DNA of 32,000 nt, taken from positions 18,239 to 50,238 of the forward strand of contig JAUWKS010000022.1 in the NCBI GenBank assembly GCA_030614005.1, given 5' to 3'. Each line of letters begins with the position of its first letter. Positions within the stretch are counted from its first letter, which is position 1. The notes under the pieces are model-generated. The model was not told the DNA's origin. It ran no database searches and saw only the letters and a list, made by a program, of their open reading frames with translations. The DNA is from Candidatus Heimdallarchaeota archaeon. Lineage in GTDB: Archaea; Asgardarchaeota; Heimdallarchaeia; JABLTI01. Position numbers and translations under genes: made by a program. Positions 14,657 to 15,313 of this stretch are shown piece after piece.

Positions 14657-15313
14657 ATGAATAAAAAATCAAAGAAAGAAAAAGGTTCCTCAAAATCTAA
14701 TAAGGAAACTGAATCAACTGAAGAAGAAATAGATATGAGTGAATACGAGGAAACAGATAAAGTAGATTACGACGAATACGAGCTCCCTGAAGATTTTGTT
14801 TCACCAGAAGATCAGATAGATGAAGATCTAAGTTGGTTCCAAAGAAGAAAAAAAGCATTCATTGATATGGAAAATTTCCAAAGACTTTATTGGATAAAAA
14901 TACTGAGCGGTGTAATTGCTGGTATGCTTTTAGGTGTTTTTGGTGCACAAACAGGATGGTGGCTCATCTTATTAATTGGACTCTACGCAATTATTGCAGG
15001 TGGAGGTTTCTTAGTATTCAAGTTAGAATGGAACTGGAAAGAACTTCTGTTTAGTGGCTTTTTCCCCTATCTAGCATTATTTACTCTCTTTTGGACTTTA
15101 ATGTTTACTTCAATACATGGTCCAGAAATGAAAGATTGGGTGAATATGCTAAATATTACAACAACTATTAATGAAACTACAACAACCTACGTTTCTACGT
15201 TCATAAATACTACAACAGCAGCAGGATTTCCAATATTAGGGATTGCATTAATTGCAGTAGTATGTTTAGGATTGTTGCAACATCTCCTTCGAAGAAGAAG
15301 AGAATTAAGTTAA
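14657..15313 (+). CDS. EMC6/OPTI(RAB5IF)-like membrane protein with an acidic N-terminus, Thr-rich linker and C-terminal TM anchor
   Basis: RLYWIKILSGVIAGMLLGVFG and ELLFSGFFPYLALFTLFWTLMFTSIH match Rab5ip/EMC6-family patterns as recalled. ATG at 14657 with GAGGT SD. Confidence 0.72.
   Translation: MNKKSKKEKGSSKSNKETESTEEEIDMSEYEETDKVDYDEYELPEDFVSPEDQIDEDLSWFQRRKKAFIDMENFQRLYWIKILSGVIAGMLLGVFGAQTGWWLILLIGLYAIIAGGGFLVFKLEWNWKELLFSGFFPYLALFTLFWTLMFTSIHGPEMKDWVNMLNITTTINETTTTYVSTFINTTTAAGFPILGIALIAVVCLGLLQHLLRRRRELS

Follow-up and report, generated by a model that had tools for sequence, protein, structure and literature searches.

We analysed a 32,000-nucleotide stretch of DNA from a Heimdallarchaeia archaeon (Candidatus Heimdallarchaeota, assembly GCA_030614005.1, contig JAUWKS010000022.1, positions 18,239 to 50,238; hereafter the window), and concentrate here on one gene encoding a 218-residue membrane protein of the EMC6/Rab5ip family, whose archaeal members are known as Elp1. 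The family is a known one, and the locus holds a lineage-specific variant of it with an acidic head, a predicted outside-facing hairpin and a fourth transmembrane helix (TM4). We consider it probable that the protein is an EMC6/Elp1-family insertase partner in which this fourth helix is permanent. Across 46 database homologues, and across 11 genomes of this organism's family (family f1, this genome included), the reading frame preserves the whole architecture, so the open reading frame (ORF) and its architecture are not a chance product.

The ORF spans 14633-15313 on the forward strand. The likely start is the ATG at 14657, which gives 218 residues: each of the 21 aligned relatives opens at the same methionine with a Lys/Ser-rich stretch, and an alternative in-frame ATG at 14633 would run into the divergently oriented rqcH gene (Table 1). 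AlphaFold2, supplied with the alignment of 21 relatives, predicts helices at residues 73-95 (TM1), 102-121 (TM2), 127-154 (TM3) and 192-217, in agreement with hydropathy, and leaves the N-terminus disordered (mean predicted local distance difference test score (pLDDT) 67, predicted template modelling score (pTM) 0.43).

This anatomy largely agrees with a prediction made earlier from the letters of the window (the original prediction). The three core helices are supported, the strings quoted from the protein are correct, and the OPTI string given for comparison agrees with the alignment to 7tut chain 9. The three N-glycosylation sequons (NIT at N166, NET at N172 and NTT at N184) are the only ones in the protein, and all lie between TM3 and TM4. 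Other details need amending. The N-terminal region does contain an acidic part, but residues 1-17 are Lys/Ser-rich and basic, and the acidic stretch comes after them. The C-terminal order of GF, TM and arginine cluster holds, with four arginines (RRRR-ELS) rather than five, and 'GF' is not a conserved motif, as relatives read [ST]-A-A-G-[F/V/I/L/P]-P. The Thr-rich linker exists, but it has a fixed length (37 residues, no indels) and a predicted beta-hairpin structure.

Table 1. Positions of the Elp1-family gene, its parts, the neighbouring genes and the f19 fusion genes. Positions are those of the window, except for the last row, which gives positions within separate loci.
Feature	Position	Strand	Basis
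Whole coding sequence, EMC6/Elp1-family protein, long Heimdallarchaeial form, 218 residues plus stop	14657-15313	+	ORF list, translation, Pfam EMC6, alignment of 21 relatives
Lys/Ser-rich basic N-terminus, residues 1-17, predicted cytoplasmic	14657-14707	+	M1, K4, K9, S11 and S14 invariant; mean top-residue frequency 0.76
Acidic region, residues 18-57, predicted cytoplasmic, SEYE and DYDEYELPEDF motifs, family-specific	14708-14827	+	Y30, E31, Y41, E42, P44 and F47 invariant; pLDDT <50
Basic juxtamembrane helix and three-TM EMC6/OPTI-like core, residues 58-154	14828-15118	+	Pfam EMC6, PDB profile search, Foldseek, AFDB
Thr-rich segment, residues 155-187, predicted exoplasmic beta-hairpin, sequons N166, N172 and N184	15119-15217	+	Fixed length, strand prediction
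AAGFP, residues 188-192, local form of [ST]AAG-x-P at the outer end of TM4	15218-15232	+	Conservation in relatives
TM4, residues 193-211, outer half variable, inner half conserved (LGLLQxLL)	15233-15289	+	Hydropathy, helix prediction, conservation
RRRR-ELS basic end, residues 212-218, predicted cytoplasmic, and stop codon	15290-15313	+	Sequence; basic cluster in all relatives
rqcH (NFACT family), divergent neighbour, start about 14 bp from the EMC6-like start	12624-14654	-	NFACT_N E 1.2e-55, NFACT-R_1 E 2.1e-31
Response-regulator receiver protein	15380-16495	-	
Choice-of-anchor S family surface protein	16806-17678	+	NF041737 E 2e-73
f19 Elp1-propeller fusions (five loci)	L126:1519-2874; L127:1516-2862; L129:1525-2859; L130:1483-2868; L131:646-2010	+; +; +; -; -	

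Family membership and the predicted insertase partner

By sequence and model comparison, the protein belongs to the EMC6/Rab5ip family and is the single member encoded in this genome (3.6 Mb, 90% complete). Residues 77-150 align with essentially the full Pfam EMC6 model (PF07019, positions 2-81 of 81) at 23.4 bits (E 8.3e-5), just over the gathering score of 23.3, and 20 of the 21 relatives match the model individually (E up to 0.01, best 1.5e-6). In a comparison of PDB sequences with the core profile, the top matches were yeast EMC6 (E 0.017-0.021) and OPTI (7tut chain 9, E 0.097), both in full-length alignments. Foldseek places OPTI (7tut_9) first among PDB structures and six EMC6 chains next (6ww7_F, 7kra_F, 6wb9_6, 7ado_F, 7ktx_F and 9zz6_F), with TM-scores by target of 0.55-0.69 across the seven, ahead of any unrelated protein. 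Matches among AFDB clusters are named EMC6 or Rab5-interacting protein and align to about residues 43-167 only. Several close relatives in NCBI carry the names 'EMC6 family protein' or 'Rab5-interacting family protein', and all named relatives are Asgard metagenome-assembled genomes, mostly labelled Heimdallarchaeota. A search of 1.84 billion representatives with the core profile returned five matches at E up to 0.001, the distant ones being short three-TM proteins, and did not reach eukaryotic EMC6. The profile searches, Foldseek ranking and AFDB names uphold the EMC6/OPTI membership that had been proposed, and the proposed Asgard origin is likewise correct.

The core comprises about 90 divergent TM residues. 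By score, neither OPTI nor EMC6 stands out as the nearer relative: sequence profiles give 18.6 bits for EMC6 and 16.1 for OPTI, and Foldseek gives E 0.038 for OPTI and 0.2-0.5 for EMC6. OPTI (RAB5IF, C20orf24), the partner of TMCO1 in the GEL complex, is the best Foldseek match (probability 1.00, 23% identity), and its full-length profile alignment includes a common GF...ALF...W...T..IH at the end of TM3. However, OPTI has three TMs and ends soon after the third (a 129-residue chain, aligned to residue 127), and it carries no exoplasmic hairpin, TM4 or acidic N-tail. EMC6, the partner of EMC3 (6wb9, 6ww7, 7kra), provides the best PDB sequence matches and TM-scores by target of up to 0.69. EMC6 acts within a many-subunit complex having lumenal subunits, whereas here there is one detectable Oxa1-family partner, and the exoplasmic element lies in the same chain as the core. 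Get2 gave no match in the PDB profile and fold searches.

Small three-helix membrane bundles produce chance matches easily, and the Pfam EMC6 score is marginal. Additionally, the NCBIfam model SLATT_1 weakly matches residues 52-118 (E 4.8e-4, 20.1 bits against a cut-off of 41). The EMC6-like fold might on these grounds be coincidental or re-used, in a stand-alone small membrane glycoprotein (for example, SLATT-like or a surface-layer-associated anchor) with no role in insertion. We judge this to be very unlikely, as four independent comparisons agree on EMC6/OPTI and nothing else recurs, the Pfam model extends to 20 of the 21 relatives, and the gene is single-copy and a positional orthologue of the short Asgard Elp1 genes. 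A SLATT domain as such was rejected, since its score is half of the cut-off and the four other comparisons favour EMC6.

The homology of Asgard proteins to EMC6 is already published and annotated by NCBI, and the family assignment therefore adds nothing new; given the published homologues and the 'EMC6 family' names in NCBI, the original prediction overrated its novelty. An EMC6-like protein, named Elp1, was found once in each archaeal proteome queried, all of which contained it (Lewis and Hegde 2021, 10.1101/2020.12.20.422553). Lokiarchaeal Elp1 retrieves EMC6 and, even better, C20orf24, Asgard Elp1 is the archaeal form closest to both, and Elp1 co-evolves with the archaeal YidC-like protein Ylp1 (10.1101/2020.12.20.422553). 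EMC6 clusters common to Asgard archaea and eukaryotes have also been listed in a 2026 preprint (10.64898/2026.10.28.762692). The protein studied here resembles archaeal Elp1 (for example, Lokiarch_50810) in family, three-TM core, one copy per genome and predicted Ylp1/DUF106 partner. Its acidic N-tail and C-terminal module were found in no paper within the literature searched. Asgard homologues of EMC6, OPTI and Get2 bear on the origin of the insertion machinery of the endoplasmic reticulum.

EMC6, OPTI and Get2 are obligate partners of eukaryotic Oxa1-superfamily insertases. The genome encodes a single DUF106/EMC3_TMCO1 gene above cut-off (PF01956, G000:C82:28664-29110, E 1.9e-24, 87.4 bits), the product of which, encoded at G000:C82:28571-29149, is a 192-residue DUF106/Ylp1 protein whose relatives are named DUF106 or EMC3/TMCO1 family. 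The original prediction was staked on two things, a profile or structural match to EMC6/OPTI and an Oxa1-superfamily partner in the same genome, and both are present. By homology with the EMC3-EMC6, TMCO1-OPTI and Get1-Get2 pairs, the three-helix core would most likely pack against this DUF106/Ylp1 protein, the only Oxa1-superfamily insertase of the genome. We infer that the Elp1 and Ylp1 pair would act in the cytoplasmic membrane as an insertase for transmembrane segments and short exoplasmic tails.

Lys and Arg residues number four before TM1, none in the TM1-TM2 loop, two in the TM2-TM3 loop, one in the post-TM3 segment and four after TM4, giving a positive-inside tally of about ten in predicted cytoplasmic segments against one outside. 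Together with the position of the sequons in the post-TM3 segment, this pattern, read from the letters of the protein, is consistent with the N-in/C-out topology that had been proposed.

The C-terminal module and the fourth helix

A profile restricted to the core was run over 399 Asgard genomes. Within family f1 (this genome and 10 of the 11 others, from two genera), it matches at E about 1e-50 in open frames of 228-260 residues. In other families, the matches are at E 1e-11 or weaker and lie nearly all in open frames of 94-205 residues, the few longer frames including a 460-residue fusion in family f19. Of the 12 f1 genomes, 11 have the C-terminal module, the present one among them, and it is absent from all 38 Asgard genomes sampled outside f1; recurrence of the extension in relatives, which the original prediction had named as a check, is thus found within the family. 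The 11 f1 proteins that we read carry 60-65 residues after the core, one of them interrupted by a stop codon in its contig, and the 19 non-f1 forms read at their loci end 2-12 residues after it. In short Asgard Elp1 forms, 0-15 residues follow TM3, and the N-tail is short and either basic or neutral; relative to them the f1 form adds an acidic N-terminal insert of about 45 residues and a hairpin-plus-TM4 module of 60-65 residues, both restricted to f1. The short forms occupy the same rqcH-adjacent position as the long form, which is therefore their orthologue.

The segment between TM3 and TM4 (residues 155-191, including most of AAGFP) is 37 residues long in all 21 relatives, with no indels, and AlphaFold2 predicts strands at residues 166-173 and 176-183. 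On the basis of this fixed length and the predicted beta-hairpin, the segment more likely forms a small folded unit than a flexible stalk. A central N-x-T falls at the predicted hairpin turn in 20 of the 21 relatives; NTT occurs in about 12 of them, and NIT is all but confined to the protein studied here. As the genome encodes STT3/AglB, the hairpin probably carries an N-glycan added by AglB at its turn. The C-out end of the core would run on outside the cell into this Thr-rich hairpin, after which the chain would re-enter the membrane as a permanent TM4 and finish in the cytoplasmic arginine cluster.

The AAG-x-P motif and the inner half of TM4 both equal the core helices in conservation. In the [ST]AAG-x-P motif (mean conservation 0.83), A188 is invariant, A189, G190 and P192 are conserved at 90% or more, and position 191 is F, V, I, L or P. 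Conservation is 0.50 in the outer half of TM4 and 0.80 in the inner half, compared with 0.76-0.84 in the core TMs. The hydropathy peak lies at residues 190-204, the inner half reads LGLLQxLL and then RR, and the pLDDT of 86 at residues 201-210 is the highest of the tail and equal to that of the core. We read TM4 as a probable permanent helix rather than a cleaved anchor, because the tail matches neither the Heimdall-CTERM nor the PGF-CTERM model and the cytoplasmic half of TM4 is as conserved as the core helices. The probable packing partner of this conserved inner half (LGLLQxLLRR) is the core or the insertase.

The original prediction had suggested that TM4 may be processed like a surface-protein sorting signal. 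On that account, the heimdallarchaeosortase encoded in this genome (NF045528, E 6e-73) would cleave at AAGxP, remove TM4 and lipidate the new C-terminus, as ArtA does on PGF-CTERM. The tail does resemble the Heimdall-CTERM and PGF-CTERM signals (NF045529 and TIGR04126) in its layout, with a Thr-rich stretch, a short Gly/Pro motif, about 19 hydrophobic residues and a basic cluster three residues from the stop, and the architectural likeness noted in the original prediction extends to weak sequence matches (E 2e-4 to 0.1) between the tail profile and large surface proteins at their stalk-plus-anchor ends. However, neither NF045529 nor TIGR04126 matches the tail at E up to 10, and the EMC6-like gene is not among the 43 sites that NF045529 finds in the genome at that threshold. 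Against a profile of 13 CTERM signals from this genome, the tail reaches -0.7 bits, which places it 1596th among 5759 ORF C-termini. Those signals read G-[FL]-[IF]-P-G-F (P-G-F or P-G-Y), TM and KKRK, whereas the tail has AAG-x-P with no PGF tripeptide, an unconserved F at position 191, an arginine rather than Lys-rich cluster and an inner TM half conserved like that of a packed helix. Its carrier is also polytopic: three TMs anchor it ahead of the tail, and the N-terminus is a charged cytoplasmic region of about 70 residues instead of a signal peptide. Additionally, the sortase is found in 79 of 82 genomes of the class and the tail in one family, so there is no sign of specific co-occurrence. 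We therefore rejected the tail as a canonical sortase signal, on the NCBIfam models and the genome-specific profile, and consider processing by the heimdallarchaeosortase unlikely. In a variant of this explanation, the processing enzyme would be the f1 sortase, whose ORF is alone in reaching about 490-509 residues and includes an extra, degenerate sortase-like half; this too seems improbable to us.

The f1 heimdallarchaeosortase is of interest in its own right (L009:1189-2715 (+), G000:C68). Nearly all other families of the class encode a protein of 233-301 residues. In f1, the additional C-terminal half repeats the sortase domain in degenerate form (E 3.6e-4 with the same model); G-T-G there aligns with A-C-T-G of the first half, so that the cysteine is absent. 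Heimdallarchaeosortase was not mentioned in the literature searched.

A second Asgard family, f19, has independently added an exoplasmic domain and a fourth TM to the same core, and this supports TM4 as a permanent helix. In f19, an LVIVD beta-propeller rich in sequons follows the Elp1 core; beyond it come a conserved PFGW motif, a fourth TM and finally a Lys-rich end. These fusion proteins are 445-462 residues long, and the architecture recurs at 35-75% identity in at least five genomes from three genera. The propeller is modelled with pLDDT about 90, and in the PDB it matches beta-propellers of generic kinds (WD40, designed 8-bladed proteins and BamB). Homology of the propeller to EMC1 is unsupported, as EMC1 is absent among the PDB matches listed. 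NCBIfam sorting-domain models have no match on the f19 fusions. The recurrence of such an arrangement supports a C-out topology of the core and an extra helix that serves as a permanent return to the cytoplasm.

These observations suggest that the C-out end of the archaeal subunit is extendable, and that Asgard lineages extended it differently, each returning to the cytoplasm via an extra helix. The differing extensions provide indirect support for the predicted topology, and offer natural variants for the study of exoplasmic modules on an EMC-like core. A bolder proposal is that Asgard Elp1 gained a glycosylated exoplasmic element and a fourth TM at least twice (the 37-residue hairpin of f1 and the LVIVD propeller of about 280 residues in f19) as counterparts of the lumenal module of the EMC, although we regard this as a long shot. 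If true, a chaperone or assembly platform facing outward would already have been part of the archaeal insertase, and the pairing with rqcH described below would reflect a functional link of membrane insertion with ribosome-associated quality control.

Fusion with a separate small gene was rejected as the origin of the tail, as strong matches to the tail profile occur in EMC6-like genes only among the 82 genomes of the class, and a tail-only profile found no stand-alone homologue in them. In two f1 genomes, a frame of 731-744 residues ends in a TM with an inner half, SLGLLTF..KRRK, that resembles the inner half of TM4 (G084:C94:52160-52261 (-), L096, E 1.9e-4; G085:C336:5728-5829 (-), L105, E 0.078). 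No counterpart was found in the present genome at E up to 0.1.

Several points weigh against reading the protein as an insertase partner with a permanent fourth helix. For the single sequence, the Pfam EMC6 score is just 0.1 bit above threshold, the E-values of the PDB sequence matches (0.017-0.097) are weak, and the AlphaFold model is of medium confidence only, by its mean pLDDT and pTM. Binding of the EMC6-like protein to Ylp1 is a prediction from homology. Shuffling shows that sequon counts are mostly those expected from a Thr-rich composition (p 0.03-0.6), so only positional conservation argues for use of the sequons, and glycosylation and the retention of TM4 are predictions. Finally, the tail shares the layout of surface-protein anchors (Thr-rich stretch, small-residue/Pro motif, TM and basic end), to which it has weak matches.

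The acidic N-terminal tail

The first 75 residues contain 24 Asp or Glu against 12 Lys or Arg. A tail that is both long and net acidic is found only in f1 (net charge -1 to -18), compared with at most 57 residues and a net charge of -2 to +14 in other Asgard forms. Conservation of the DYDEYELPEDF motif suggests that this cytoplasmic tail, gained in f1, probably docks a cytosolic factor, which makes it a testable candidate docking site.

One such factor could be a Get3/ArsA-type ATPase, another cytosolic chaperone or the ribosome, captured by the tail of a Get2/CAML-like receptor that hands tail-anchored clients to Ylp1. The length of the tail, its conserved motif and its restriction to f1 would fit a receptor of this kind, and Get2 is set apart from EMC6 by cytoplasmic extensions that contact Get3 (10.1101/2020.12.20.422553). 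Two ArsA/Get3-family ATPases are encoded in the genome, but ArsA-family matches occur in all 14 control genomes, and their presence is thus uninformative. The Get3-binding motif of Get2 is basic, whereas the tail is mostly acidic, and no sequence similarity to Get2 emerged from the PDB profile search. We therefore think a Get2-like receptor improbable, and favour an Elp1-type partner of Ylp1 with a tail that probably docks some cytosolic factor.

Gene order around rqcH and neighbouring genes

The head-to-head arrangement of rqcH and Elp1 extends far beyond this genome. Counting the present genome, every one of the 11 f1 genomes has the pair, as do 32 of the 38 Asgard genomes sampled outside f1, spanning at least 12 families (loci L040-L069 and L106-L125). 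The remaining six comprise two same-strand pairs and four cases with no rqcH nearby, as judged within 2.5 kb for three of them and within 3.2-4.8 kb of contig on either side for the fourth (G057). The predicted starts of rqcH and Elp1 lie from a few to about 340 nucleotides apart, when the first in-frame methionine is taken as the Elp1 start. A literature search found no paper containing both NFACT and EMC6. This phylum-wide gene order offers a lead towards linking membrane insertion with the rescue of stalled ribosomes.

Downstream, the EMC6-like gene is convergent with the gene for the response-regulator receiver protein, whose long C-terminal domain belongs to no Pfam family. Conservation of this neighbour is limited to f1, at 45-91% identity in the 10 other f1 genomes. 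The surface protein encoded two genes from the EMC6-like gene ends in PSGF, a TM and KKRKQ. Its rank against the CTERM profile of this genome is 26 of 5759, and it is a likely sortase substrate.

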